Below are positions 734 to 37,872 of a DNA stretch of 64,000 nt, one piece after another. Within the stretch, counting starts at the first letter, position 1, and each line of letters starts with the position of its first letter. Origin of the DNA: Bacteroidota bacterium (GTDB lineage: Bacteria > Bacteroidota > Bacteroidia > M30B66); contig JAIXYK010000032.1 of the NCBI GenBank assembly GCA_027490225.1, forward strand, positions 32,418 to 96,417, in the 5' to 3' direction. The notes below the pieces were generated by a model that saw only the letters and a list, made by a program, of their open reading frames with translations, searched no databases and had not been told where the DNA came from. The position numbers and the translations under genes are program-made.

Positions 734-1120
734 ATGATGAACGAACCCGACAAATCGACCTTTTTTATAGACTTACAACGCTTAGTGGTAGATTATGTTA
801 AAACCAGACTTGAACTGACCCAGCTTGTTGCTTTTGAAAAAATTTCAAAGATTGTAGCTTATTTGGTTATTGGTGTAATTCTAGCGCTTTTGTTTTTCTT
901 CGGATTACTGTTTGCAAGTGTAGTTTTAGGTATCTTTTTAAGTGATTTGCTGGGTAGCACCTTAATAGGATTTGGAATTATTGCACTTATTTATTTGTTG
1001 GTATTTATGGTCATTCTAAGCCTAAGAAATAAATTAATTGCCCCTGTTATCATTAATTCAATTATAAAGATTTTGTATGAACGCAGTCAATCAGATGAAG
1101 ATGAAATCCAAGAAGATTGA
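734..1120 (+). CDS. small membrane protein, phage-holin-family-like (2 TM)
   Basis: 128 aa with an amphipathic N-terminus, then two long hydrophobic helices and an acidic tail. This matches the size and topology of 'Holin-X' family proteins. Confidence 0.45.
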   Translation: MMNEPDKSTFFIDLQRLVVDYVKTRLELTQLVAFEKISKIVAYLVIGVILALLFFFGLLFASVVLGIFLSDLLGSTLIGFGIIALIYLLVFMVILSLRNKLIAPVIINSIIKILYERSQSDEDEIQED

Positions 1121-1448
1121 AGATATTGAAAGTCTTCTAGCAGAGCAAAAAAGACTTCGCAAAACCTTAAAATCTAGTGAAATAGAAATTAATGAACGAT
1201 TTGGTTATTTAAGAAGAAAGTATCCTATCATATTGTTGCACCAGATTCTGCCTTTTGAAGATAAAAAAAAGGAAATGATTGCAAACACATTGGTAATAGT
1301 AAGCAGTCTTTTTATGGGAAAAGTGGCTGATTCGGGTAAAGAACTTTTAGAAAACGTTTTCCAAAAGATATTTACTTGGATAAAGAAGAAAACTGGATTT
1401 GAGAAGGCTGAAGAAACTAGCGCTTCACAACCTGACTCAGCGCTTTAA
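1077..1448 (+). CDS. hypothetical protein (true start probably the internal Met at ~1095-1101)
   Basis: ORF on the same strand overlapping the end of the upstream gene; the first half is a charged coiled-coil-like stretch. Confidence 0.35.
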   Translation: MNAVNQMKMKSKKIEDIESLLAEQKRLRKTLKSSEIEINERFGYLRRKYPIILLHQILPFEDKKKEMIANTLVIVSSLFMGKVADSGKELLENVFQKIFTWIKKKTGFEKAEETSASQPDSAL

Positions 1449-2868
1449 TAAATGCATCATCAATTTTTATATACTCGAGCATTCTATTTGATTTTTGATT
1501 TAACAATTCAAATTTCGAGAATAACTGAGCTATTTTTTGGTCAACTTGTCTTGCACTTGAACTCATTTGCAATGAAAGTATCTTGTAGAAAATGAGTGCA
1601 TTTTCATAACCAATTTCATCATCTAGTTCCCTTATTTTCCTAGTAACAGAGCGTAATAAACTTGTTGCTGGATCATATTTATTAATCATTGAATAATTCA
1701 ATGCCAGTAACAATTTTACTTCAATCTCAGAATGTGGATAATTTTTAAAGCTGATATCATTAATTAACCCATTTAATTGCTGAACTGCCTCTTGGTATTT
1801 TTTTGCGTAAAATGCACAAGTAGAAACGTATTTTACGAAATTGATGTAGTTAGGAACATCGTTCTTGTCAGGCTCGTAATTAGGAATGAGCGTTTTGTTT
1901 TGTTCGTATAACTCTGTTTCTGTGCCCAATTCAATATGCCTTTCAATTTTAGACAATAAAAACTTCGTAGTGAACGCGCAATGGTTGAATAACAGAAATG
2001 ATTGCAATTTTTTATCTACCTCTTCGAAAAATCTAGTTTCCTTTTTAGGAAGATTCAATTTATGGTAATATTCGAAGGCTAGAAAATTATATACTAATTG
2101 CAGGTATTGATAATTGGTATCTTTTGAGAAGGTTGTAAAAACTTTTTCAAGTTTCAATAAGATATCTTCAATTGGCTCATCATCTTTTATAGCATCTGTA
2201 TTGGGTACAAAAAGTGCAAAAGAAATATCTACAATGCTTTTGTAAACTGTTAAATGGTGAGATAAATAAAGCGTACAAATATGCCCCATTTCCTTTTTAA
2301 TTAAGGCGAGGTATTCAATTTGCGATTTATTTCTGGATGCAAAATATTCACCTAGAGAATTCATAAAAGAATTCAATAAGTCTTCTGCTTTATCTAAAGC
2401 TATGGTGTAAGCAAGGTGCTTATTATAAAGCTGGGTGTATTCGTAATATTTCGGTGAATGAATGTGCAATTTCTTTAGAGCACTGTACACACTCGACATT
2501 TCATATGGCATGTCGTAGTTTTGCAATTCTGACTCTAATTTTGAAAGAATGGCAATGGCAGTATCTCTGTGCGTATCGTAGATTAATGTGGGAATGTTTG
2601 CAACTTTTCTCAATAAATCGATAATTGGAGTCGACATATTGTTGGTGAGGAAGTCTTGAATCTTATCAAACAACCTTGATTTTAAGGTGTAATAAGCACT
2701 CGTATTAACAGCTAACATTTCCTGAATATCCTCGTCGGTATATTTGTTCTCTCTATACAACTTCAACAACCTAAGGTATTTGTCTGCTTTGGTATCAATA
2801 AATTGTTGACACAAATCGTTGTACTCATCTTCCTTGAGCTGCAGAACTATACTCTTAAACTTAATCAT
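1417..2868 (-). CDS. hypothetical all-alpha protein (483 aa) with a possible N-terminal HTH-like segment
   Basis: Long uninterrupted ORF rich in Leu/Tyr/Lys with no TM segment or signal peptide. The N-terminal 70 aa resemble a small helix-turn-helix module. Confidence 0.55.
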   Translation of the reverse strand: MIKFKSIVLQLKEDEYNDLCQQFIDTKADKYLRLLKLYRENKYTDEDIQEMLAVNTSAYYTLKSRLFDKIQDFLTNNMSTPIIDLLRKVANIPTLIYDTHRDTAIAILSKLESELQNYDMPYEMSSVYSALKKLHIHSPKYYEYTQLYNKHLAYTIALDKAEDLLNSFMNSLGEYFASRNKSQIEYLALIKKEMGHICTLYLSHHLTVYKSIVDISFALFVPNTDAIKDDEPIEDILLKLEKVFTTFSKDTNYQYLQLVYNFLAFEYYHKLNLPKKETRFFEEVDKKLQSFLLFNHCAFTTKFLLSKIERHIELGTETELYEQNKTLIPNYEPDKNDVPNYINFVKYVSTCAFYAKKYQEAVQQLNGLINDISFKNYPHSEIEVKLLLALNYSMINKYDPATSLLRSVTRKIRELDDEIGYENALIFYKILSLQMSSSARQVDQKIAQLFSKFELLNQKSNRMLEYIKIDDAFIKALSQVVKR

Positions 2869-2923: not shown

Positions 2924-5900
2924 TTAATTTTCATCAACAGTTGTTGTAACCGCTCCTGGCAATTGATCTATTATTTCCCAAGTCCCGTCAGCGCGCTGTC
3001 TCTCAATTATGTAAAATCCAACACCTTGGTCTCCCCAGCCATTATAAGGTGTCCAATTTAATTCAATACTAAATGCGTCTGTTGCTTCAGCTTTTAATAC
3101 CACATTATCACTAAAACCCCCTTGTTTTCCTTCTATTCCGCATTGGTTCGTTGCCATAATCCTGTAAAAATACTTTGTATTATTTACATTTACATTTTCA
3201 TCTAAATATGACCTTTGTTCGCTCGGAACTGTTCCTAAGTATATAAAGTTAAGGTTATCGGTAGAGCGGTAAATTTTATAAGCTGTAACTTTATCGCCCA
3301 TAACAGCAGGAACGGGCCATTCGGTTAGTACAGATTCATTATTTACTACAGTAGACCTTGCTGCATTTACTTTTTGGTCTGCAAATAAATTATCAATTGG
3401 ATTGCTTAAGTCGTAATCAGAATCAGATTCCACATGCCATTGACCATTTAAGCCTTCTCCTTTTACAGAATATCTATATTTCACTGGACAAAAAACCGAA
3501 GAGTCTCTGTAAGCGGTAACACTTCCTGGCACAATTCCCAAATCTTCTGTAATTGCAGAATTTTCTTCTGTTCTAAAAATTCTGTATTGAGTTGGAATTT
3601 TTCCTACGTAAGGTGACCATGTGAGGTCAATTTTATTATCTTCTCTTGTAAATGCTTCAATATTGATTGTACAATGTTCAATAATACTATCACTTTCAAT
3701 AGAATAACCACATCTGTCGGATGTTATAATTTTATAACAATAAACATTTTCAAATGTATTTAAATTTCCATCTGTTAACGATATGGTGTGCGGATCTGAA
3801 ATCGTCTGAATTAATTCAAATTGCAGCGTTTCTTGATTCTTTTTATAAATCATATAAGCGCCGAAATCGGGTGCTAGAGACTCTTCCCATTCTACAATAA
3901 CTTCTGTTTGGCTTAAAACGCTCACACGAAGGATTGGCGTAACTGGCGCAGGAAGTGTATCAAAAACATTCACAATACTCGGAAGTATTAATGTATCACT
4001 GCAACCATTTTCATTGTGTACTTGAAGTTGAATGGTGTAAAAACCTGGCTCAAAATAAACAGCAGAAGGGTTTTGCAAAGTTGAAGTTGCTGCATTTCCG
4101 AAATCCCATGAATATGTTGGATTTTCCAGGTTGTAAGAAGTATTATTGAAGGTAACATTTAAAGGAGTGCACCCTTCTGTTTCTGTTAATGTGAATCCTG
4201 CAATAGGTATTAAATGAGCTTCAAGTCCATTAAACATGGCTGTATCTGTGCAGCCTCCTTCGTTAGTAGCAATTAATTGAATGTTAAATTCACCTGCTTC
4301 ATTGTAATTCACAGTTGGATTCTCTTCAGTTGAAGTTTGCCCATTGCCAAAATCCCAGAAATAGCTAACAGCACCAACTGAATTATTGACTGCATTTATA
4401 AGCAAAGGTGCGCAATTGCTGGTATCATTCACTGCAAATTCAGCTCTTGGAAAAGGAAAAACTGTAATTGGAAAAGGAATAGTAAAAAATGCGCTACAAC
4501 CTAAGGTGTCTTGAGAGAATAAAGTAATTATATATTCACCTGCTTGTTCAAAACTAAATACTGGATGTTGAACTGCACTTATTGTTCCTTCTCCAAAATT
4601 CCATTCCCATTCAACAGCACCCATTGATAAATCTGTAAACTGAACGGTATCTCCAATACATAATTGATTGTCAGACACTTGAAATTGTGTGCCTGGACCT
4701 AGAACTGTAACATAATCTACATATAGTAAAGTATCTGAACAACCGTTAGATGCAGTAATAATTAAACTAACATCATATTGTCCTGGGGCGCTGTATAATT
4801 TAACAGGATTCTGAACTGTTGAACTAGAGCCATCTCCAAAATCCCATAACCAAGTTACGGCCTCTACAGACTGATCAAAAAATTCTACAATAGATGGGGC
4901 GCAACTTGCAGGTGTAGGTGAATTGAAAGCTGCAATTGGTCCTGTTACAGATATTGGTACTTGTAAAAATACAGTATCAATGCAATTTTCTAAAGATGTT
5001 ATAATAGCTCTTGCTGTGAAATTTCCATTGCTTGTGTATAAGTGACTTGGCGTTGGGCCACTGCCAGTGGTCCCATCACCGAAGTCCCATTGCCAACTTA
5101 CAATTCCATCTTGAGAAGCCGTAAAATTTACTGGCAATGGATTACAGTTACCTGTAAATGAAGCTTCAATTTGAGGAGAAAATAAAGTAATCCCAGCTTT
5201 AGTAGTTGAATCTATGCATCCATGTGATGTTGTTATTGTTAACGAAATAGAATCTGCTGGTTCTGATGTAACAGAAATGAAAGGGTTACTTAATGTTGAA
5301 GTATCTCCATTTCCAAAGTCCCATAACCACGATACTGCATCCTGGCTTAAATCTGTAAATTGAACATTTAATGGTAAACAATTAGAAGTTTGGGTAAAAT
5401 CGAAATCCGCATTTGCACCATAAACTGTTATTGGAATGTCAATAACATCAATAGATTCACACCCTCCTGCATGATAATTCATTGCTTTTAAAGTAACATA
5501 GTAAACACCTGGATTTTGGAAAACATTAGACCCTGTGGTACTCCAATCATGGTCGTATGTTCCATCCTGCCATTGCCATAAATACCAGCCATATGCACCG
5601 TTATTCGCACCTGTGGAAAGATTTGTAAAATTTGCTGTAAAGGGCGCACATCCGCTAACAGGACCTACACTTTCAATTCTTGCAACAGGAAAATAAACTG
5701 TAACTGGCACAGGTAGGTTAAAAGTATTACTACAGCCATCTGGATCAGTATATTGTAAAGTGACATTAAACTCTCCAGCATGAGTATAAAAATGAGAAGG
5801 AAATGCTTCTGTTGAAGTTGTACTGTCTCCAAAATCCCATAAATATGTGTAATTTTCAGGAAAATCATGGGCAAATTCTACTGTATCTTTACAAACAGAA

Positions 5901-8746
5901 TGAGGATAAGTAACGACAGGTAATGGTGGGTTAGAGAAAAATGACTTTAACCTAGAAGACTGACAACCAAGAGTGTCAATTAACGTTAATACAACATTAT
6001 ATGCAGAAGCAGAAAGAGGGAAATCATTGCTTGCTGTGAAAGAATTACTTGTTATTCCATTTCCAAAATTCCAAACAAGACTTTGAACTACATTAGAATC
6101 GGGATAAGTTACTTGAATATTTGTATAAGAACAATAAACAGTTTCCTCTAAGGTAAAATCAATTAATCCTCCCCCAATTTGAATAGATTGTGGGTATTGA
6201 ATTGTATCATAACCTAGTTGAGTTTGAATCACATAGGAAACATTGTAAATACCAGAAGCTGCATAATTGTGCGATGGGTTTTGTTCTGTGGAGGTCGCGC
6301 CGTCTCCAAAATTCCATAAAACCACATCTTCCTCTTCATCCTGAGGATAAAATGAAATATTAATTGGTGCACATCCAATTAAAGGGAAAAGCAAATTTTC
6401 ACTTACACTACCTGTACTGCCTCCTGAGGAACTATCTCCAATAACGATAATCGGTATAGTTGATTCAAATGAGCCACTAAATTCAGTAGTATCACAATTG
6501 TTATTTTCAATTTGGAGGGTAACTTGATATTCACCATCAGTTTGATAAACATGAGTTGGGTTTTCTTCAGTCGAGGTAAATCCATCGCCAAAGTTCCATA
6601 ACCAAGAAGTAGCAGACTGATTAGTACTTGTAAAATTTATTGCAATAGGATTTGAACCTTCTACAGCCGAAGAAGTAAACCCTGCATTAAACGATGAAAA
6701 ATTAACCGAATTAAAACCTATGTACGTATAAGTACATCCCAGATTTGTGGTAACTGTTAAACTTGCATGATGTGTATTATTATTATCGTACACATGGGTT
6801 GGTGTTTCTGAAGTAGATGTTGTTCCATCTCCAAAATTCCACAACCACGAAACTACACTCACAGAATTAGTGTCTTGAAAAGTAACAGGAAAAGGCGGAC
6901 AAGGATCTATTGTTACATTAAACCTAGGTATGCCTCCTTCAACAATTACAGTTTGAAAGTTGGGATAATTTATTGAACAAACGCTGCCATTGTTTATAAG
7001 TAGTGAAACCGTATAAACACCTGCTTCTTCGTAGGTATGGTTTGGATTAGATAATGTTGAAGTGTTCCCGTCTCCAAAATTCCACAGATAACTTATGGCG
7101 GAATTATCTTGAATTCCAAAAGAAGCAGTAAACGGAACGCAAGCTGTTATTGGTGGCGGAGGATTATAAATAGCATTTTCGTAATTTACATCTATAAAGT
7201 TATTGATTATTAATGTATCTCGACATCCAGCCGGGTTTGTTGCAATTAACGTAACATTGTAAGAACCTAAATTTGGATAATTCTTATTAGGATTTGCTGA
7301 GGTAGAAACAGACCCATCTCCAAATAACCAAAGATAAGACGCAGCTCCAACACTAGTATTTGTAAAACTAACCTGAAATGGTGGACAACCTGAAGTGTCT
7401 GAAGCTGTAAATGAGGCTATTGGAGCAACAACAGTTACTGCCGCATTTATTAAATTGAAAGCCGTGCAGCCAAATTGATTCGTTGCTGTGAGTTTTACAT
7501 TATATGTACCTGGGTTTAGATAAGTAAATGTTGGGTTTGAAACTGTAGAACTTTGACCATTTCCAAAATCCCATAAATAACTAACAGCACCACTACTTTG
7601 ATTTGCAAAACTTACAGTTAAAGGCGCGCAGCCAGTTGAATTACTTAAAGTAAAAGAAGGTATTGGTAATGGGTTTACCTGAATAAAATTATTATTCTGA
7701 ACTGGATAACTACATCCATTTGGCATTGTAACGGTTAATCCAACAGTATAACTTCCTTCATTTTGGTATGTTACAGACTGAGCCTCATTAGAAGATGTTT
7801 GCCCATTTCCAAAACTCCAGCTGTAAAAAGATGCACTATCGATATTTGTAGAAAAATTAACCACAAGAGGCTTACATCCGCTTACAGTATTAGAAACAAT
7901 TTGTGGGATTATCGGAGTATGTATTTTTATATACTGACTTTTTACTACACTATCTAAACATCCAAAAGTGTTTACAATTTTCAATTTTACATTATAAGTT
8001 CCGGGAGCAGAATAAATTTTATTGGGAGATTGTTGCGTAGAAGTTGTTCCATCTCCAAAATCCCAAGTATAACTTCCTGCATTTGTATTTTGAGGACTAA
8101 ATTGAAAAACTTGGTTTGGATTGCAAGTTACAGTTGGAGTTGCAGAAAATTCCGCAGAAGTAATTGGATGAACACTTAAGTTTTCAGGTAATTGAAAAGA
8201 CCCAACACAACCACCTGAATTTGTAGCTAACATCGAGACTGTGTAATTACCGGCGTTATTATATATTTTGCTAGGATTACTTAGTAATGAATAAGTTCCA
8301 TCTCCAAAATCCCAGAAATAAGTGTTATTGCCAGGAGTAGTGTTTGTGAATGTAAAGTTAGTTTGATTCATACATCCACTTTGCACAGCACTAGTAAAGG
8401 ATGCAATTGGCCCAGGTAAAGCAGTAATGTAATTATTAAATATTGCTGTATCTCTGCTTCCATTAGAAGCAATGGCGATTAAGCTTACTGTATAATTACC
8501 AGGAGCTACATAAACGTTTTGGGGATTTTGTAAAGTTGAAAAATTGCCATTCCCGAAATTCCATTGGAATGAAGTTGCACCTGTCGAAGTATTAGTAAAA
8601 TTAACACTAAATGGCGCGCAACCTTGTTGTTGCGATGCGTTAAAACCTGCAGTAGGAATTTGGGCCCATAACTGGCTGCTTAGAAATAACAGACAGAAAT
8701 AGACTAATAATATGCGGTTTTTCTTTATATGTATAATTTTATCCAT
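2924..8746 (-). CDS. giant secreted cell-surface protein: signal peptide, ~20 tandem PKD domains, then FN3-like modules; no own T9SS CTD
   Basis: The track ORF is 2924..8896; I place the start at the internal Met (MDKIIHIKKNRILLVYFCLLFLSSQLWAQ, a signal peptide). The PKD-domain motif W(N/D)FGDG(T/S) recurs about 20 times at ~88-aa spacing. The C-terminal ~500 aa contain FN3-like YxYR..N..G repeats. Confidence 0.85.
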   Translation of the reverse strand: MDKIIHIKKNRILLVYFCLLFLSSQLWAQIPTAGFNASQQQGCAPFSVNFTNTSTGATSFQWNFGNGNFSTLQNPQNVYVAPGNYTVSLIAIASNGSRDTAIFNNYITALPGPIASFTSAVQSGCMNQTNFTFTNTTPGNNTYFWDFGDGTYSLLSNPSKIYNNAGNYTVSMLATNSGGCVGSFQLPENLSVHPITSAEFSATPTVTCNPNQVFQFSPQNTNAGSYTWDFGDGTTSTQQSPNKIYSAPGTYNVKLKIVNTFGCLDSVVKSQYIKIHTPIIPQIVSNTVSGCKPLVVNFSTNIDSASFYSWSFGNGQTSSNEAQSVTYQNEGSYTVGLTVTMPNGCSYPVQNNNFIQVNPLPIPSFTLSNSTGCAPLTVSFANQSSGAVSYLWDFGNGQSSTVSNPTFTYLNPGTYNVKLTATNQFGCTAFNLINAAVTVVAPIASFTASDTSGCPPFQVSFTNTSVGAASYLWLFGDGSVSTSANPNKNYPNLGSYNVTLIATNPAGCRDTLIINNFIDVNYENAIYNPPPPITACVPFTASFGIQDNSAISYLWNFGDGNTSTLSNPNHTYEEAGVYTVSLLINNGSVCSINYPNFQTVIVEGGIPRFNVTIDPCPPFPVTFQDTNSVSVVSWLWNFGDGTTSTSETPTHVYDNNNTHHASLTVTTNLGCTYTYIGFNSVNFSSFNAGFTSSAVEGSNPIAINFTSTNQSATSWLWNFGDGFTSTEENPTHVYQTDGEYQVTLQIENNNCDTTEFSGSFESTIPIIVIGDSSSGGSTGSVSENLLFPLIGCAPINISFYPQDEEEDVVLWNFGDGATSTEQNPSHNYAASGIYNVSYVIQTQLGYDTIQYPQSIQIGGGLIDFTLEETVYCSYTNIQVTYPDSNVVQSLVWNFGNGITSNSFTASNDFPLSASAYNVVLTLIDTLGCQSSRLKSFFSNPPLPVVTYPHSVCKDTVEFAHDFPENYTYLWDFGDSTTSTEAFPSHFYTHAGEFNVTLQYTDPDGCSNTFNLPVPVTVYFPVARIESVGPVSGCAPFTANFTNLSTGANNGAYGWYLWQWQDGTYDHDWSTTGSNVFQNPGVYYVTLKAMNYHAGGCESIDVIDIPITVYGANADFDFTQTSNCLPLNVQFTDLSQDAVSWLWDFGNGDTSTLSNPFISVTSEPADSISLTITTSHGCIDSTTKAGITLFSPQIEASFTGNCNPLPVNFTASQDGIVSWQWDFGDGTTGSGPTPSHLYTSNGNFTARAIITSLENCIDTVFLQVPISVTGPIAAFNSPTPASCAPSIVEFFDQSVEAVTWLWDFGDGSSSTVQNPVKLYSAPGQYDVSLIITASNGCSDTLLYVDYVTVLGPGTQFQVSDNQLCIGDTVQFTDLSMGAVEWEWNFGEGTISAVQHPVFSFEQAGEYIITLFSQDTLGCSAFFTIPFPITVFPFPRAEFAVNDTSNCAPLLINAVNNSVGAVSYFWDFGNGQTSTEENPTVNYNEAGEFNIQLIATNEGGCTDTAMFNGLEAHLIPIAGFTLTETEGCTPLNVTFNNTSYNLENPTYSWDFGNAATSTLQNPSAVYFEPGFYTIQLQVHNENGCSDTLILPSIVNVFDTLPAPVTPILRVSVLSQTEVIVEWEESLAPDFGAYMIYKKNQETLQFELIQTISDPHTISLTDGNLNTFENVYCYKIITSDRCGYSIESDSIIEHCTINIEAFTREDNKIDLTWSPYVGKIPTQYRIFRTEENSAITEDLGIVPGSVTAYRDSSVFCPVKYRYSVKGEGLNGQWHVESDSDYDLSNPIDNLFADQKVNAARSTVVNNESVLTEWPVPAVMGDKVTAYKIYRSTDNLNFIYLGTVPSEQRSYLDENVNVNNTKYFYRIMATNQCGIEGKQGGFSDNVVLKAEATDAFSIELNWTPYNGWGDQGVGFYIIERQRADGTWEIIDQLPGAVTTTVDEN

Positions 8747-8754
8747 CCCAATAT

Positions 8755-9231
8755 TTATTCTATGGTACCGTCTGCAACCAATGTAACTCTGCCTGTTTGC
8801 TCTGGTAAAACCGAATTGTTTTTTCCAATAGCTTTTACTTGATATACATAAACATCTGTACTTGTTATCTTTTTGCCTTTGTAAGAACCATCCCAATAAT
8901 TCTGAATGTCATCGCTCTCAAAAACCAATTCTCCAATGCGATTATATATTTGAAGATTAAAAGATTTAATTCCTTCTGCTTTTACCCCAAAAGAATCATT
9001 AAGTCCATCTCCATTAGGAGTAAATGCGCTTGGAATGTAAAGTAGTGGTTTCGGAATTGCCTCAGCAGTATTTGAAAGACTGGAAATTCCAGAACCTCCA
9101 ATTTTATAAGCTGTAACGCGATATGTTTTATTCTCACCATTATTAGATTGAGACTTCAAATCTTCATTTGAAAACACTATTAAACTAGCGATTAATAAAG
9201 TAAATGACCAATAATTGAATGATAATTTCAT
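8755..9231 (-). CDS. stand-alone T9SS type-B sorting-domain protein: signal peptide plus a gliding-motility-associated C-terminal domain (CHU_C) only
   Basis: 158 aa. The hydrophobic N-terminal signal peptide is followed by the motif FTPNGDGLNDSF...YNRIGELVF...WDG...DVYVYQV...GRVTLV, which is diagnostic of the type-B T9SS CTD. The stop lies ~8 nt before the start of the giant PKD gene. Confidence 0.75.
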   Translation of the reverse strand: MKLSFNYWSFTLLIASLIVFSNEDLKSQSNNGENKTYRVTAYKIGGSGISSLSNTAEAIPKPLLYIPSAFTPNGDGLNDSFGVKAEGIKSFNLQIYNRIGELVFESDDIQNYWDGSYKGKKITSTDVYVYQVKAIGKNNSVLPEQTGRVTLVADGTIE

Positions 9232-9535
9232 AAATACACTTTCAAATCTTCTTTAAGCTTAGTGTATTACTGCAATTATTGATTTTACGTTACCTATTGG
9301 AGTGAAATGAGTTGTGCATAAATTACATTTGTAATAAATTCTTCTTTTAACAAATCATTTAACGTGAAATTGTCGATTTTACTGACATTCAATCGAAATA
9401 AGTCTCAAATTAATCATGTAAGAAATTAGAATAAACTTACTTTTTATGCCATAAAACAAAAAAACACAGGAGTGTGCCTAGAAATGATTGAAATGAATTA
9501 TAAAAATCATATTTTAGACGGATTAATAAGATAGA

Positions 9536-10657
9536 ATGAAACAAGGTTTACTTTGCCTTATTCATATAGGAGACGACAAAAGGCTGCATTTAAAAGCAGA
9601 AGCTTTACGGGAAGAATTGAGTGATGATGTGAACACTGTTTGGCTGAGTGTTTCAGAATTGTATCTATACGACTTTGGTAATTTTGTTCCATTTATTATC
9701 TGTGTAATTAGCGATAGTAAAATAGAATGGCAAAATGAAGTAAATTTATTAAAATCAAAGTTTCCTCATTTCGTTTTAGGAATATATTCAGATGATATCT
9801 CTAGCATTCAAGCTTATGCAACAGGTTGCCAGTTTGTACTGCACTCAGAAGATAAACTTGGTAGTCAATTTTTATGGCAAATTGTTACTTCAAAACACTT
9901 AAACAACGAAAATCAAATATTAGAAAATCAAAGGCTTGAAAAATCTTTAGCGGAAATTCAATCCAAAAATAAAGAACTCGAAAAAATTAATTTTGAATTA
10001 GATCGATTTGTTTATTCTGCATCTCACGATTTACGATCACCCTTAACCTCTGTGCTTGGGTTATTGTATTTGTTAAGAACACAATTAATTGACGCTGAAT
10101 CTATTAAATATACAAATTTAATGGAAGAAAGCATTCTTAAATTAGATAATACAATTAAAGATATAGTAACATATTCCAGAAATAATAGGACGGATATTAT
10201 CAGAGAAAAGATTAAAGTAAAATCACTCATAAAAGATTTAGTCGATAATTTAAAATATTTAGAACCAACTGGAACATCATTAAATGAATCTATTGTTTTT
10301 AAAGGAATTAATATTCTCAATGCTGACAAAAACAGGCTTCAAACTATTTTAAATAATTTAATCTCAAATAGCATTAGATACAGGCAAACATCTCGTCAAT
10401 TAAAAATTCAAATAAAAACAGAAGTCACCGATGACAAGGTTATATTATCTGTCGAAGACAATGGAATAGGAATTAAAGAACAACATATAGATAGAATTTT
10501 TGATATGTTCTATCGTACAAATGATAGCAGCACTGGCTCTGGTCTTGGATTATATATTGTGAAAGAAACTATAAACAAATTAGGTGGAAGTATTCAGGTA
10601 AACTCTACAATTAATGAAGGAACTACTTTCATAGTTTCTTTTCCATTAGCTAATTAA
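9536..10657 (+). CDS. cytoplasmic sensor histidine kinase (HisKA plus HATPase_c) with a degenerate receiver-like N-terminal domain
   Basis: H-box SASHDLRSPL and G-box GSGLGLYIVK are present; there is no TM segment. Confidence 0.85.
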   Translation: MKQGLLCLIHIGDDKRLHLKAEALREELSDDVNTVWLSVSELYLYDFGNFVPFIICVISDSKIEWQNEVNLLKSKFPHFVLGIYSDDISSIQAYATGCQFVLHSEDKLGSQFLWQIVTSKHLNNENQILENQRLEKSLAEIQSKNKELEKINFELDRFVYSASHDLRSPLTSVLGLLYLLRTQLIDAESIKYTNLMEESILKLDNTIKDIVTYSRNNRTDIIREKIKVKSLIKDLVDNLKYLEPTGTSLNESIVFKGINILNADKNRLQTILNNLISNSIRYRQTSRQLKIQIKTEVTDDKVILSVEDNGIGIKEQHIDRIFDMFYRTNDSSTGSGLGLYIVKETINKLGGSIQVNSTINEGTTFIVSFPLAN

Positions 10658-10662
10658 TTATT

Positions 10663-11058
10663 ATGGAAAACACTTTTGAAGAAATAATTCTCATTGAAGA
10701 TAGTGAAATAGATGTTTTCATAAATACAAAAGTTATCGAATTGATGCAAATAACAGATCGTGTAGTTTCCCTGCCTTCCGGAGAAGCTGCGCTAGAATAC
10801 CTCAGCAATACGCAAAAAACATTCAATAAATCTTATTTAATATTCCTTGACATCAGAATGCCTAAAATGGATGGTTTTGAATTTCTCGAAAGTTTTCAAG
10901 CACTTCCTGAAAAAATAAAACAAAAAATTAGAATTGTAATGCTTTCTTCAACCATAGATACAATTGATTTAGAAAAAGCAAATGCCAATCCTTTTGTTTT
11001 AGCATTTATTCCCAAGCCACTGACAAGAGATAAAATTGCTAATTTGCAATTGATGTAA
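10663..11058 (+). CDS. single-domain response regulator (CheY-like receiver)
   Basis: Receiver motif LDIRMPKMDG with the conserved Asp; 131 aa with no output domain. The start is 6 nt after the kinase stop. Confidence 0.85.
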   Translation: MENTFEEIILIEDSEIDVFINTKVIELMQITDRVVSLPSGEAALEYLSNTQKTFNKSYLIFLDIRMPKMDGFEFLESFQALPEKIKQKIRIVMLSSTIDTIDLEKANANPFVLAFIPKPLTRDKIANLQLM

Positions 11059-11068
11059 AAATAAAAAA

Positions 11069-11101
11069 GGCGGATGTAATTAAATACATCCGCCTTTTTT
11101 T
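11069..11101. terminator. bidirectional rho-independent terminator
   Basis: Hairpin GGCGGATGTA-attaaa-TACATCCGCC flanked by an A-run on the 5' side and a T-run on the 3' side, between convergent genes. Confidence 0.8.
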
Positions 11102-11114
11102 GCATTTTTAAATA

Positions 11115-11996
11115 TTACTTTTCAACCGTAATAACCAAATATTTAGAAGATTTCCAGAAAGATTCGGAGTTTGTAATTGTTAAACTTTTTGCTTTCTTTT
11201 TACCATCCATTTCAATTTTGTAAGAAGATGTTGGATGCGTAGTAATTACCTTAGCAGATTTCGCATTAATTGGAATAGATGTTATTTTCGATACATCTAT
11301 TTGAGTAAAATAATCTTGATTAAAGTCGGATTTAAGAATTTTCTTTTTTCCTAATCCTAAAAATCCACCTTCTTTGTTTACTACTTTATTATCTCTTAAT
11401 TCTTTATATGTTCCTACAGCATAAAAAGCTGTGTTCATCTTAACTACCTGTTGTTCTATAACCTGTGTTTTACTAGCACTTTCGGTTTTCAAGTTAGATA
11501 CATTTGTATTTAACTCTGTAATCTGAATGTTTTGCGCAGCTAATTGCTCTTTTAAAGTTCCAATTTCTTTGTCTTTCTCAGCCAATTGCTCGGTCATTCG
11601 TTCAATTGTTTTTTCAAACTGTGAAATTTTAATATTTGATTTCTTCAGTTTTGATTGAAGATTAATAAGCTTCTGCTTATTTTCTTCCATTATCTCATTG
11701 ATATCATTGATATCTTGATTGATTCTATCTTTTGCTGTGCCCTGAAGTTCAGCTCCACCAGTAGCTGACGTTTTAATTGAGCCTTCTTTTTGTTTTACTT
11801 CTCTTAAATTATCTTCTATTTCATTCAATGATTCCATAAAAGAATTTATTGTGGAATCTTTTGAAGCTGCTTCTTTTGCAATGGCTTCTTTTTCAGCTTT
11901 TAATTTTTCTAATTCCGGATTAGGTTCATCTGCACTTTGACATCCGTTAAAAATTAAAGCAATACTTAATAGGGTTGAATACAACGCACTTTTCAT
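11115..11996 (-). CDS. coiled-coil lipoprotein, function unknown
   Basis: Lipobox ...LIFNGC, a long heptad-rich central region and a C-terminal beta-rich domain. Confidence 0.6.
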   Translation of the reverse strand: MKSALYSTLLSIALIFNGCQSADEPNPELEKLKAEKEAIAKEAASKDSTINSFMESLNEIEDNLREVKQKEGSIKTSATGGAELQGTAKDRINQDINDINEIMEENKQKLINLQSKLKKSNIKISQFEKTIERMTEQLAEKDKEIGTLKEQLAAQNIQITELNTNVSNLKTESASKTQVIEQQVVKMNTAFYAVGTYKELRDNKVVNKEGGFLGLGKKKILKSDFNQDYFTQIDVSKITSIPINAKSAKVITTHPTSSYKIEMDGKKKAKSLTITNSESFWKSSKYLVITVEK

Positions 11997-34924: not shown

Positions 34925-37309
34925 TTAATGCTGGATAATTAGTTTTTGTGTTTCAGCAAATCCTTCCTTATTCAGAAGTTGAACAAAATAAATTCCATTG
35001 GACAAATCTGAAGTTTCAACATTTACAGAACCATTGCTTGAGTTAAATAATAAAATTAATTTCCCTGAAACATCTAATATTTTCCCTTTAAACTCGCCCG
35101 ATTTACAAGAAACTTGAAACACGCTATTACTCGGATTTGGAAAAATGTCAAAACCAGTTTCATTCATTTCTTCTAAACTCTCGGGTGTATTTTTTATACC
35201 ATACAATTGAACATCATCGATATAAATACCATCCAATTCTGAAAATTGATCTGAAACAAAATGATACCTTATTCTTATCTTTTCTCCAGCATATTGTTTC
35301 AAAGATATACTTTCGTTTCTCCATAACCGGGTTCTGTCTTCATAATTTGGCTCAGCATCAACTCCATCAAAATTCTCGTGGATTGAAGTGTATTCTGCGC
35401 ACAATTTCTCCCAGACTCCGTTTTCTCTTTTAATTTGAACGGATGCAATATCATAGTATTGCTCAGTGAACCACCAAACCCAGTAATCTAATCGAGCATC
35501 TATAAAATCAGTTAAATCAATCTCATTTTCAAATTCCATCGAACTTTCTTCATTAGAAAGGTAAGGCGAAAAAGGCGAATCTGTTAATGAAAATGGTGCA
35601 GAATGATATCTTTCTGATGTTGTGCTCCATAACTGAGTATTGGCTTCGCTCACCCAATTATTTCCATTTTCAATACTATCATTAATTAAGTAAATAGGTT
35701 GCCCAAAAATATGGGTAATTGTATCTCTCCAGAAATTCCCATTAACCTGCACCAACCAAACGTATTTAATGGTGTCTCCAGCTTGTAAACTTGGAGGTAA
35801 TGCATAAGAAACAGAATGGCCCGAAGTGTCAAATCTCGTAGGAGAATTTATAATTACAGGAGAAAAATCTGTAAATGAGATGTTGCTAATTCCAATTGCT
35901 TCAACTGTAAAGTTTCCTGATGTATTTCCAAGGGAAACAAATCTAAATGGCAAAGTCCCATTTGTTCCAGGTGGAATATAGTAAGGAGCGTCATCTATAA
36001 TTTCAGCATAACTAAGCGCAAGTTTTAATGTTTTTAGATTCATAAAAACTTCATTTGCACTGGCTGGAATTATTACTTCGGCTGGAGGCCAAAAACCATA
36101 AAACGGTTCTCCGAACTCAGGTGTAAAAGCAAAAACTGCAGGCTTTGTAGTTGTGTCTCCATACATCCAATCATCTGAACCGCCATTTCCGGTATAATAG
36201 ATTGTTTCGGGAACAGTGCCATAATAAAAGTGGTTTTCTGCGCACATTGCTTCTGAAAGATTTCGAAATGTAACAGAGTCTGGGCATTGAGCATTCTCTA
36301 AATTCCCATAAGGATATATTAAAACATTACTAAATGAGTGGTTATTAATAGCATAGATAAATTGGTGTTGTTCTGTAAATAATTTCATCAACCTTGTTTC
36401 TGGTTCAGAAAAAGGAGCAGTACCTCTATATGTTTGTTGATCTGCAAATGGAGAAGAACCAAAATCATCAAAACCCCAGAATTTTCCATAATTCCTATTC
36501 AAGTCAACTCCAAAAGAGCCGTCACCATTATTTCTTCTGTTTTTTCTCCACAAGCCACCTCCGCCTGGTTCTGATACTTCGTTATATACATAACCATCAG
36601 GATTTACACAGGGTACGATGTATAACTCTGTTTGATCTAAAATTTGTTTGATTTCTAAATCATTCTCGTAGTTTTCAAGAAGATACCAAGTAAAAAATAT
36701 CAATTGAGAAACAGATAATGGCTCACGAGAATGGTGCAAAGAACTCATCAAGACTTTTGGTTCATTCGGCTCATCTGAATTCGGATTATCAGAAACGCGA
36801 ACCCAATTTACAGTTCTATTTTCTAAGGTTAACAATGTATCTGAAATTGGGCTTAATTCCGAAATCAATTGCGGATATTGCTGATGCATTGCATTAAAAT
36901 TATCGAGAATTTCCTGATAACTGTAAAAACCTGATTGACTTCCTTCTTGAAAATTTACTGGTGTTTTTACCTTTTTTAATCCACATTCGTCTTGAATTGC
37001 CCTGCTTTTCTCAAAATCTCCTTTTTTATACAACGACCTGTAATAGCTGCTTACATCTTCAATTAAAATAGAAGTTTCAAAACCAGCATTTGCTATTTTA
37101 AGCAATTCATTTTCCGAAAAATCTGAGATAAAAGAATGACCTTGACGCAACATTCCATGGTCAGTTTCTATACCTAAAGCTGCAAGTTTTTGAATTGGTT
37201 CTTGTTTCAGAAATATCTCAGCTCTGTGATACTTTTCAACCTGAGCTGTTAAGATTGTTGCGCAACTTATTACAAAAAAAACTATTAAAACAGTCCGTTT
37301 CATTTCCAT
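34925..37309 (-). CDS. M14-family zinc carboxypeptidase with a C-terminal T9SS type-A sorting domain
   Basis: Signal peptide, the M14 Zn-binding motif HHSREP (HxxE) and a C-terminal ~80 aa ending ...GIYFVQLLNKEGFAETQKLIIQH, typical of Por_Secre_tail. Confidence 0.8.
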   Translation of the reverse strand: MEMKRTVLIVFFVISCATILTAQVEKYHRAEIFLKQEPIQKLAALGIETDHGMLRQGHSFISDFSENELLKIANAGFETSILIEDVSSYYRSLYKKGDFEKSRAIQDECGLKKVKTPVNFQEGSQSGFYSYQEILDNFNAMHQQYPQLISELSPISDTLLTLENRTVNWVRVSDNPNSDEPNEPKVLMSSLHHSREPLSVSQLIFFTWYLLENYENDLEIKQILDQTELYIVPCVNPDGYVYNEVSEPGGGGLWRKNRRNNGDGSFGVDLNRNYGKFWGFDDFGSSPFADQQTYRGTAPFSEPETRLMKLFTEQHQFIYAINNHSFSNVLIYPYGNLENAQCPDSVTFRNLSEAMCAENHFYYGTVPETIYYTGNGGSDDWMYGDTTTKPAVFAFTPEFGEPFYGFWPPAEVIIPASANEVFMNLKTLKLALSYAEIIDDAPYYIPPGTNGTLPFRFVSLGNTSGNFTVEAIGISNISFTDFSPVIINSPTRFDTSGHSVSYALPPSLQAGDTIKYVWLVQVNGNFWRDTITHIFGQPIYLINDSIENGNNWVSEANTQLWSTTSERYHSAPFSLTDSPFSPYLSNEESSMEFENEIDLTDFIDARLDYWVWWFTEQYYDIASVQIKRENGVWEKLCAEYTSIHENFDGVDAEPNYEDRTRLWRNESISLKQYAGEKIRIRYHFVSDQFSELDGIYIDDVQLYGIKNTPESLEEMNETGFDIFPNPSNSVFQVSCKSGEFKGKILDVSGKLILLFNSSNGSVNVETSDLSNGIYFVQLLNKEGFAETQKLIIQH

Positions 37310-37872
37310 TTAAATGTTTCGATTAAGTGATTGATGTCTTTTCTTACAAAATCTAAAGAAGGCGCCAGAGAATCAGAATTTGGTTCTGCATAAAAATAAA
37401 GTGAGCCTCTTAAAAAATAGCGAGTACTATCTGTAACATGAAATTGTAAGGAAGATGCTGCTTCCCCGCCAATCTCATAAAGCATCCCGTAAACTTTTTC
37501 CGATTTGTTTTCAATGGGATATTCTCCTATTCCACTTGCCTTTACAGAATGCTTGTATGCCATTTTGCGAGATTCTTCTAAATACTCGGCTGCATTATTA
37601 TTCAATTCCTTAAAGCTGATATGTATTTTAGCTTTAAGCTTACCAAAATCAATATTTATATAACATTTCTCATTGTTTCTTCCGGTAGGTAACTCAATTT
37701 TAGAATAAGTTGGAAATTCGAATGTGTAAGGACATTCAATGTTGAGTTGTTGGTAATTTTTTTGAGGGAAATCAATCCTATAGTACCCGCGTGGCTTGGG
37801 AATTTCTGTTGTTTCTTCTCCACAGGAAATGCATGAAACAAAAAATAAAATGTAAAAAAAAGACCTAATCAT
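37300..37872 (-). CDS. gldD: probable gliding-motility lipoprotein GldD
   Basis: 190-aa lipoprotein (lipobox FVSCISC) immediately downstream of ssb, preceded by mutY. This is the genomic context in which gldD sits in Flavobacterium johnsoniae, and the size matches GldD. No recognisable sequence motif was checked. Confidence 0.5.
   Translation of the reverse strand: MIRSFFYILFFVSCISCGEETTEIPKPRGYYRIDFPQKNYQQLNIECPYTFEFPTYSKIELPTGRNNEKCYINIDFGKLKAKIHISFKELNNNAAEYLEESRKMAYKHSVKASGIGEYPIENKSEKVYGMLYEIGGEAASSLQFHVTDSTRYFLRGSLYFYAEPNSDSLAPSLDFVRKDINHLIETFKWK

Follow-up and report, generated by a model that had tools for sequence, protein, structure and literature searches.

Gene arrangement at the locus

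The window, that is the whole stretch of 64,000 nt analysed here, derives from a Bacteroidota bacterium (M30B66; assembly GCA_027490225.1, contig JAIXYK010000032.1, positions 32,418 to 96,417 of the forward strand). A short gene for a type-B T9SS sorting domain (CTD) directly precedes the gene for a giant PKD protein on its minus strand. The locus contains the following features:

1417..2868, minus strand: 483-aa TPR-like protein directly downstream of the giant; cytoplasmic, all-helical, conserved
2924..8746, minus strand: giant coding sequence, 1940 aa, with signal peptide, PKD array, three complete and one truncated FN3-like modules and no CTD
2927..3100, minus strand: terminal truncated FN3-like module of the giant (last 58 aa), with strands A, B, C, C' and E only, ending in TTTVDEN
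3101..4186, minus strand: three complete FN3-like modules of the giant (about aa 1521-1882), assigned by sequence periodicity
4187..8662, minus strand: PKD-repeat array of the giant (about aa 29-1520), 17 PKD_4/PKD stretches
8663..8746, minus strand: giant signal peptide, aa 1-28, ...SSQLWA/Q (MDKIIHIKKNRILLVYFCLLFLSSQLWA/Q; cleavage at the slash)
8747..8754, minus strand: 8-nt spacer between the minigene stop and the giant ATG
8755..9231, minus strand: minigene coding sequence, 158 aa, with signal peptide, FN3 F-G strands, type-B CTD and short acidic extension
8758..8775, minus strand: six-residue extension ADGTIE past the canonical CTD end, at the minigene C-terminus
8776..9051, minus strand: type-B T9SS CTD of the minigene, aa 61-152, FTPNGDGLND ... 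GRVTLV
9052..9147, minus strand: mature minigene N-terminus, aa 29-60, with the second half of the E-F loop, F strand KTYRVTAYK and G strand SSLSNTAEAIP (FN3-like)
9148..9231, minus strand: minigene signal peptide, aa 1-28, MKLSFNYWSFTLLIASLIVFSNEDLKSQ, predicted cleavage near S27/Q28
9536..10657, plus strand: divergent soluble histidine kinase (HK), 373 aa, HisKA and HATPase_c, no TM segment
10663..11058, plus strand: receiver-only response regulator (RR), 131 aa, PF00072

The minigene product (the mini) matches PF13585 CHU_C with 67.5 bits (cutoff 27; aa 66-139) and TIGR04131 with 54.7 bits (curated cutoff 35). Its CTD keeps all conserved type-B motifs and has the CTD of GhpA (9flp) as its sole sequence match in the PDB. 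The signal peptide was called heuristically from the hydrophobic N-terminal segment (Kyte-Doolittle 19-residue maximum 1.53, followed by S-Q), and the cleavage site was read by eye using the Bacteroidetes 'Q-rule'. The sorting domain lies at the C-terminus, ending at aa 152 of 158; in place of a passenger, it is preceded by only about 32 mature residues, which make up two strands and no whole domain. Among the matches listed, 75 of 80 type-B CTD loci in species genomes have the CTD at the end of a protein longer than 230 aa, a baseline taken from a profile scan of genome contigs with the mini alignment, which contains generic CTD motifs and for the most part picks up conventional type-B cargo of large size. 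More than 100 homologues of the minigene, 140-171 aa in length, were found.

The giant follows in a different frame: the minigene stop (TAA, 8757..8755) is separated by the 8-nt spacer from the giant ATG at 8746, and the giant stop lies at 2926..2924. Its own N-terminal hydrophobic segment (Kyte-Doolittle 19-residue maximum 1.85, then A-Q) is matched by a conserved signal peptide with an equivalent A/G-Q site in orthologous giants. Pfam assigns 17 PKD_4/PKD stretches (689.7 and 463.4 bits). Searches of Pfam and NCBIfam gave no match of the giant to a type-A (TIGR04183/PF18962) or type-B CTD, not even a cryptic one, and its C-terminus (...GAVTTTVDEN) aligns to FN3-like strands A-E. These data bear out the sequence-only reading, which had described a 158-aa product with a signal peptide and a complete type-B CTD and, about 8 nt behind it, a secreted protein of about 1940 aa without a recognisable sorting domain. 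It had counted about 20 PKD repeats, against the 17 matches given by Pfam.

The arrangement of a mini and a CTD-less giant is real. The identical minigene was found in identical context in at least six independent assemblies (different samples; JGI, ENA, Logan) and the arrangement recurs across diverged genomes, so an assembly artefact is excluded. The gap between the two genes measures -4, 7-11 or 40 nt in orthologous loci. Thus, there is no conserved frame relation between mini and giant and a fixed recoding event is impossible, in agreement with the earlier statement that this is not a simple frameshift. An operon is suggested by the 8-nt spacing only; scans of the mini/giant locus for sigma-70 promoters, terminators and the Bacteroidetes -7 motif yielded nothing above chance.

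The 483-aa protein had no match in Pfam, NCBIfam, PADLOC or the PDB sequences. Its AF2 model (pLDDT 89.4) gave weak TPR/Rap/NprR-like matches in a fold search, and the protein is 81-99.6% identical between loci whose HKs share about 47% identity. The HK lacks a hydrophobic segment (Kyte-Doolittle maximum 1.29), its N-terminus looks cytoplasmic, and it lies upstream of the mini-giant pair in all class-A loci for which sufficient sequence is available. No called gene within 10 kb of the pair matched the PorP_SprF family in loci L001, L007, L008, L010 and L012. The window also encodes GldD and a type-A CTD protein, which indicates that the organism possesses T9SS/gliding machinery.

Two fragments of one FN3-like domain

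The two products were placed on a profile built from the tails of 22 fused homologues only (186 positions). The last residues of the giant cover positions 4-61 and minigene residues 29-152 cover positions 64-185, with aa 29-60 falling on positions 64 to about 95. The footprints do not overlap, and that of the mini starts right past the predicted cleavage site. Read as one sequence, giant tail and mature mini are 31-42% identical to the fused tails, with no gap at the junction and with invariant columns on both sides of the cut. The complete FN3-like module 3 of the giant matches the same profile through its own F strand (KYFYRIMA).

Judged by these alignments, the giant C-terminus and the mature mini derive from one ancestral tail, as two fragments that abut without overlapping. 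The giant thus stops within strand E of its final FN3-like module, and the missing F and G strands open the mature mini. The segment that had been taken for a linker of about 35 aa in the minigene product is therefore no linker but the F and G strands of an FN3-like domain, as judged from the profile, the alignment and the AF2 model.

For this model, a single covalent chimera of the window's giant tail and mini was used as input, with the fused tails as alignment rows. The prediction reached a pLDDT of 90.5 and placed five strands in the giant part (2-6, 12-16, 27-35, 41-48, 53-56) and the F and G strands in the mini part (65-73, 80-82 and 86-88 of the chimera), followed by the CTD sandwich; the best fold matches in the PDB were tandem FN3 domains. 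As the chimera leans on the fused homologues, the model shows compatibility of the halves and not affinity.

In chaperone-usher pili and in the type V pili of Bacteroidota (which PMC8512630 mentions), an Ig-like fold that lacks its terminal strand or strands is completed in the periplasm by those of another polypeptide. The same features are seen here: the acceptor lacks terminal strands and is conserved in this state, and the free terminus of the donor consists of exactly the missing strands. In contrast to donor-strand complementation or exchange, the donor here would give F and G, two strands instead of one, and the putative pairing would be 1:1 and not polymerising. Furthermore, no chaperone, usher or protease is evident, and the donor itself carries the secretion/anchoring domain.

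Conservation of the pair and its fused relatives

Complete giants are present in 12 loci, with lengths of 1930-1945 aa and a VDEN end in 12/12. The gene order (RR and HK, divergent from mini, giant and 483-aa protein) is the same in L001-L012, while the outer flanks differ. The sequence-only reading had proposed a synteny check across related genomes and had named a fused ORF at an orthologous locus as evidence against its view: mini and CTD-less giant are kept in the 12 complete-giant loci, and no syntenic orthologue is fused.

In a metagenome scan with a hand-made DNA pattern for YRVTAYK-x10-N-x-A-D/E, minis accounted for 38 of the 41 matches; in viral contigs the pattern had no matches. A giant homologue follows the mini in 17 of these 38 cases, and 12 minis (class B) have no adjacent giant. 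These orphans have RR homologues directly behind them (40-45% identity to the RR of the window). Locus L093, in turn, carries a split-type giant without an adjacent mini, and together with the class-B minis it indicates that mini and giant are not always paired in cis.

Altogether, at least 86 distinct minis (90% clusters) of constant length were recovered. The F-G segment is nearly as conserved as the CTD (65% vs 67% mean identity) and contains the invariant residues Y37, R38, S51, S53 and N54. The signal peptide is the most variable segment (14.5%), yet it is present in 86/86 minis, and in all 86 a Q precedes the YRV motif by no more than 14 aa. In the giant, the truncated module is the best-conserved part (69.7% identity vs 48-66% elsewhere). 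Both ORFs stay intact across lineages that share only about 86-88% identity in LepA. This pattern of sequence conservation indicates that the pair and its cut site are under purifying selection. The C-terminal end divides the minis: 77 of 84 extend 6-7 residues beyond the G.VTLV motif (subfamily 1), while subfamily-2 minis and fused homologues end one residue past it, the latter with ...TLIR.

Fused homologues in canonical order (P0121, P0122, P0129, P0182 and others; 1900-7200 aa) share their four FN3-like tail modules with the giant, continue into the F-G strands and CTD seen in the mini, and are colinear with giant plus mini. They differ in being single polypeptides and in having two Cys (YCYRI ... 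SNE.C) that are absent from the minis; the basic residue ahead of the F strand, found in all minis, is missing. Among the best 150 tail relatives (50% clusters), 55 are split-type, defined as ending 40-47 aa past a conserved Trp, as against 44 fused ones. In a crude NJ tree, one change separates the split and fused classes. The fused relatives fall into a distinct class, which points to an evolutionary origin and not to an artefact. The best explanation of these sequence relationships appears to be that a canonical type-B T9SS adhesin was split once, long ago, and that the break fell within the E-F loop of the final FN3-like domain. As the tail now precedes the head, the gene order must have arisen through rearrangement of a fused ancestor, in which the tail fragment would have gained its own start codon and signal peptide and become the first gene of the operon.

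The same need for a rearrangement could be taken as a sign of decay, with a meaningless CTD fragment left ahead of a truncated adhesin gene. We consider such a rearranged or pseudogenised remnant highly improbable. It is already contradicted by the intact ORFs in at least 12 complete-giant loci and many partial ones across the LepA range given above, and the constant length of the mini clusters, the strong purifying selection on both fragments and the 55 diverged split-type clusters speak against it as well. Only the unusual gene order speaks for an artefact of assembly or binning, or for a single protein made by stop-codon readthrough or frameshifting. Both can be practically dismissed, given the shared junction in the JGI, ENA and Logan assemblies, the varying spacer and frame and the conserved signal peptide of the giant.

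Proposed export of the giant by a sorting domain in trans

On balance, we favour an ancient split that left two cooperating chains: mini and giant would rebuild the FN3 domain, the CTD would be supplied to the giant in trans, and T9SS would co-export and anchor both. Association, co-export and anchoring are steps that we infer from the complementary halves. Both chains would be exported by Sec, and the mini, made first, would offer its N-terminal F and G strands to the incomplete last domain of the giant (A, B, C, C', E). An FN3 sandwich would thereby be rebuilt non-covalently in the periplasm, resembling strand complementation. The two-chain complex would then carry a type-B CTD for T9SS export and would be held on the cell surface through this CTD by a PorP/SprF-type outer-membrane protein, as is other type-B cargo. 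Mini and giant would probably have to join before export. Type-B CTDs remain intact and bind PorP-like anchors (PMC9143113), retention by PorP/SprF-like proteins is expected for type-B cargo (PMC9143113, PMC12618676), and T9SS moves folded proteins (PMC9251779). The more specific proposal that T9SS exports a two-chain cargo, in which the giant is recognised, translocated and anchored only via an adaptor donating two strands, has in our estimate an even chance of being correct.

Canonical type-B cargo, such as SprB of F. johnsoniae (with SprF), PG1035 of P. gingivalis (with PorP) and GhpA of Aureispira, likewise has a Sec signal peptide and a large Ig-like/PKD passenger, and shares with the minigene a TIGR04131/CHU_C domain with all conserved motifs. 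In contrast to these proteins, passenger and CTD are two genes and polypeptides here, the CTD gene comes first and the cut lies inside a domain. Moreover, the CTD has a 6-7-residue C-terminal extension and no porP/sprF-like gene is adjacent; such a cognate gene near type-B cargo is frequent but not universal (PMC12618676). There is also a likeness to hitchhiker or piggyback export, known from Tat hydrogenase subunits and peroxisomal import (reviewed in PMC9251779), where the targeting signal of a partner carries a signal-less protein through a transporter for folded proteins. Here, the transporter would be the outer-membrane T9SS, and the putative interface is a single rebuilt domain instead of a subunit interface.

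In the literature on piggyback export, hitchhiking and strand complementation with T9SS, we found no description of a split T9SS cargo; the split passenger/CTD arrangement has thus not been described for this system. The same literature gave no precedent for a non-covalent complex co-exported by T9SS, which counts against our interpretation, as do the missing PorP/SprF-like gene within 10 kb, the class-B minis, L093 and the extension in subfamily 1. The sequence-only reading had suggested, among other options, a split cargo or an in-trans partner, and the abutting halves, the fused homologues and the conserved pair support this arrangement, with a function in trans as its probable consequence. 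Another of its options, a decoy substrate, may be conceivable but leaves the complementary half-domains unexplained.

The mini might instead be an independent small T9SS surface or signalling protein that is co-regulated with the giant but not joined to it, the giant having another route of export and retention. It could then act as a PorA-like CTD ligand or as a PorP-like barrel cap. The 12 of 38 mini loci that have receiver-only regulators in place of an adjacent giant fit this idea. PorA of P. gingivalis, a small cargo protein, activates PorXY through the binding of its CTD to PorY in the periplasm (PMC12152298), and PG1035 has been proposed as a PorP cap (PMC9143113). PorA resembles the mini in being a small secreted protein with little beyond its CTD and a link to a two-component system (PMC12152298, PMC7712824). 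However, its CTD is of type A and its partner PorY is a membrane kinase, whereas the mini has a type-B CTD, a soluble kinase as neighbour and a non-CTD part that is a half-domain matching the neighbouring giant. PorA/PorY-type signalling as the main reading was set aside because of the soluble kinase: without a transmembrane or periplasmic part, the HK cannot directly sense a periplasmic CTD. An independent mini also leaves unexplained why its non-CTD part corresponds to exactly the F and G strands missing from the giant and is conserved like the CTD. The truncated module, being the most conserved region of the giant, argues for a partner, and orphan minis may pair in trans, since lone split giants of the L093 type exist. 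We therefore regard an independent role of the mini as rather unlikely.

Less likely still is that the chains do assemble, but for periplasmic quality control or retention, with the mini chaperoning or capping an open, aggregation-prone domain, or with the CTD serving only as an anchor after export by another route. Capping is plausible in so far as the core of an FN3 fragment left open with five strands would be exposed, and the lack of a precedent for two-chain T9SS cargo fits as well. On the other hand, the same tail belongs to ordinary T9SS cargo in the fused relatives, the type-B motifs of the CTD are all kept under selection, and none of the nearby genes encodes another system that could take a 1940-aa PKD protein across the outer membrane.

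The locus provides a clean natural case of a gene split inside a domain, with the gene order altered as well and the outcome kept by selection. If the giant is indeed exported with the help of the mini, the sorting tag would be a separately encoded unit, possibly regulated apart from its cargo or exchangeable, and adaptors and giants that stand alone would find their partners in trans, elsewhere in the genome. T9SS cargo is now defined, predicted and counted by a CTD on the same polypeptide; with a tag that works in trans, CTD-based secretome predictions would overlook a whole class of large adhesins, which in this analysis comprises at least 55 diverged clusters. The translocon would also have to take a non-covalent complex, which bears on substrate recognition and handover by SprA/Sov and the PorP/SprF shuttle. 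Finally, a natural split FN3 pair, already tried by evolution, would offer a tool for T9SS surface display, in which the cargo could be any protein with the five-strand fragment at its end.

Gene pair and T9SS context

The pair comprises a small protein gene directly upstream of a giant adhesin ORF, with 8 nt between the stop codon of the former and the ATG of the latter. The genes considered here are:

8755..9231, minus strand: small protein gene, 158 aa, stop TAA
2924..8746, minus strand: giant ORF (ATG at 8746, end at 2924), 1940 aa
1417..2868, minus strand: gene of a cytoplasmic, all-helical 483-aa protein, always downstream of the giant
9536..11058, plus strand: histidine kinase and receiver-only regulator, always divergent from the pair
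34925..37872, minus strand: GldD lipoprotein gene adjoining a 794-aa M14 peptidase with a type-A (Por_Secre_tail) CTD

Residues 66-139 of the small protein form a type-B T9SS sorting domain, matching PF13585 (CHU_C, 67.5 bits) and TIGR04131 (54.7 bits) above the curated cutoffs. In the giant, the family search returned 17 PKD matches and no sorting-domain match; its C-terminus reads ...GAVTTTVDEN. At the N-terminus of each protein, a hydrophobic segment leads into A/S-Q, judged by eye to be a signal-peptidase I site that follows the Bacteroidetes 'Q-rule'. ORF coordinates, HMM matches and N-terminal segments thus bear out the sequence-only reading of a CTD minigene upstream of a CTD-less PKD giant. 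By its HMM matches, domain position and signal peptide, the small protein qualifies as a true type-B CTD protein, albeit one that lacks a passenger; the giant, in turn, is a CTD-less adhesin of the T9SS type.

The GldD gene and the type-A CTD peptidase indicate that the organism has T9SS/gliding machinery, and the peptidase, carrying its own CTD, shows that this genome also encodes cargo of the usual fused type. No porP/sprF-like gene was found within 10 kb of the pair.

A split FN3-like module

The C-terminal 420 residues of the giant consist of FN3-like modules, the last of which apparently stops after the E strand. Residues 29-60 of the small protein (SNNGENKTYRVTAYKIGGSGISSLSNTAEAIP), encoded at 9052..9147 on the minus strand, resemble strands F and G of an FN3-like module. 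When the giant's 420 residues were used in an exhaustive profile-free search of 1.84 billion cluster representatives, two classes of full-tail matches emerged, one ending where the giant ends (split-type) and the other running on for 122-134 residues in the same polypeptide (fused). This extra stretch (..Y.D..T.LDQ..YCYRI.A.E.GGN...SLSNE.C....APNAFTPNGDG...TLIR) corresponds to an F strand, a G strand and a type-B CTD. The last 58 aa of the giant together with the mature small protein align to natural fused tails with 31-42% identity and a gap-free joint, which is flanked on either side by invariant columns (W16, Y19, W22, V27 and Y30; R68, S81, S83, N84 and the CTD motifs). In a profile HMM built exclusively from fused tails (n=22, 186 positions), the giant's last residues occupy positions 4-61 and residues 29-152 of the small protein positions 64-185, so that the fragments abut without overlap; the second begins exactly past the predicted signal-peptide cleavage site. 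The segment previously described as a ~35-aa linker is therefore better assigned to strands F and G.

Joined and modelled with AF2 (pLDDT 90.5, pTM 0.74), the two fragments yield, in order, the giant's five strands, F and G of the small protein and the CTD sandwich, with tandem FN3 domains as top PDB fold matches; because the input alignment consists of fused homologues, this shows compatibility and not binding.

The chain ends differ in composition. Fused tails (P0121-P0268, alignments A3/A4) carry two nearly invariant cysteines around the F-G hairpin (YCYRI ... SNE.C), which are absent from all small proteins; these have instead a K/R at most 3 residues ahead of the F strand (86/86). The C-termini of split-type giants are mostly acidic residues, and together these features may reflect compensation at the new chain ends. 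Moreover, 77 of 84 small proteins of the window's subfamily continue past the usual CTD end with an acidic stretch of 6-7 residues (A[DE]G..[DE]; 8758..8775, minus strand, in the window), an extension absent from fused relatives and from a second subfamily.

Conservation and origin of the pair

At least six independent assemblies, differing in sample and pipeline, carry an identical small protein in the same context, and this rules out an assembly artefact. More than 100 homologues of 140-171 aa were found, with identity down to ~45%. In genomes with a 56-70% identical small protein, where LepA is only ~86-88% identical, the order is unchanged despite different outer flanks: receiver-only regulator and histidine kinase (divergent), small protein, giant (1930-1943 aa), 483-aa protein. 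Scanning metagenome contigs with a DNA pattern for the F-G motif yielded 41 loci, 38 of them stand-alone CHU_C proteins of 143-171 aa and none inside a large ORF. A giant homologue follows at -26 to 115 nt (mostly 7-11 nt) in 17 of these 38, and a receiver-only regulator 40-45% identical to that of the window in 12 (class B); the remaining nine have other neighbours or lie on contigs too short to classify. All complete giants (12/12) end in VDEN.

As the sequence-only reading had held, this is not a simple frameshift: the spacer varies among orthologues in length and frame (-4, 7-11, 40 nt), which excludes readthrough or frameshift fusion. A decaying remnant is hard to reconcile with the purifying selection that both half-domains are under, since the F-G segment is as conserved as the CTD (mean pairwise identity over 86 small proteins 65% and 67%; signal peptide 14.5%) and the truncated module is the best-kept region of the giants (69.7% vs 48-66% elsewhere).

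Among the best 150 representatives of 50%-identity clusters of tail relatives, 55 are split-type, ending 40-47 residues (mode 42) past the conserved Trp of the last module, and 44 are fused. In a crude NJ tree computed from the sequence preceding the cut, one parsimony change parts the classes, and the nearest neighbour of each split-type protein is itself split-type. Because a domain cannot originate as separate halves, the most parsimonious history is that a fused cargo underwent one ancient fission, after which the tail gene came to lie upstream.

More distant loci keep the same elements in varied form. L138 encodes the small protein, a 152-aa signal-peptide/FN3 protein, an 1832-aa split-type giant, the 483-aa protein, regulator and kinase. 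Directly upstream of the giants in L138 (3930..4388) and L093 (2297..2878), a protein of 152 or 193 aa carries a signal peptide and one complete FN3-like domain, but no CTD. The L093 giant (2952..11454) is called as two ORFs of 1004 and 1817 aa, the first with a junk-like end and the second without a signal peptide, probably because a sequencing error or frameshift interrupts a giant of ~2800 aa. It has no adjacent small protein, and L011, L013 and L015 have small proteins without an adjacent giant; the partners may therefore pair in trans across the genome. The latter three (10001..10435, 4775..5212 and 9932..10351) belong to the second subfamily, of 139-148 aa with a canonical ...VTLVR end, whose conserved surroundings are different: upstream, on the other strand, lies a PF06491 (Disulph_isomer) gene, receiver genes usually follow downstream, and the vicinity contains no giant. 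Locus L014 (9983..15789) holds a stand-alone F-G-motif protein of 147 aa (RKYRVVAYK ... SVSNEVEIIP); 417 nt further on begins an unrelated protein of 1648 aa that lacks PKD motifs and has an end resembling a type-A CTD.

Proposed assembly and regulatory neighbourhood

Type-B CTDs stay uncleaved and hold cargo on PorP/SprF-like outer-membrane proteins (PMC9143113, PMC12618676), and folded proteins are T9SS transport substrates (PMC9251779). The complementary anatomy of the two fragments is conserved, and the best-supported model, which we consider moderately probable, is strand completion with a CTD supplied in trans. The small protein, translated first, would encounter the C-terminus of the giant in the periplasm, donate strands F and G to complete the last FN3 domain and provide the CTD for export and anchoring; association, co-export and anchoring are all inferred.

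In the main rival reading, modelled on PorA and the binding of its CTD to the kinase PorY (PMC12152298), the small protein would act independently at the surface or in signalling. Support comes from the class-B loci and from the invariable presence of two-component genes nearby, but the neighbouring kinase is soluble, without TM segments and with an N-terminus resembling a pseudo-receiver, and the half-domains are left unexplained. Class-B genes directly precede a homologous receiver-only regulator (40-45% identity) in L094, L095, L097, L098, L105, L115, L119 and L122, so that the sorting-tag gene is associated with regulators of this family whether a giant is present or not.

The 483-aa protein is the best-conserved member of the module (81-99.6% identity where the kinase has ~47% and the giant ~56%) and thus nearly as conserved as LepA. 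Sequence searches of Pfam, NCBIfam, PADLOC and PDB gave no match, while more than 785 homologues share a constant length of 480-485 aa. Its AF2 model (pLDDT 89.4) is a TPR-like solenoid with weak fold similarity to Rap/NprR regulators. In locus L137 it occurs without a giant, again among regulator and kinase genes. Speculatively, the 483-aa protein, kinase and regulator may serve as the module's regulatory arm. Two small overlapping ORFs (734..1120 and 1077..1448, plus strand; 128 and 123 aa) run convergently towards the 483-aa gene and are kept in L001, L002, L003 and L008; the 128-aa product matches Phage_holin_3_6 below threshold (23.6 bits vs cutoff 28.4).

The proposed two-chain assembly resembles donor-strand complementation in pili and the proposed co-export resembles hitchhiker export by Tat; no report of either for T9SS was found in the searchable literature. 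Compared with SprB/SprF-type cargo and its own fused relatives, the pair is new in its two-gene architecture, the cut inside a domain and the reversed gene order, and the small protein in its short extension past the CTD.
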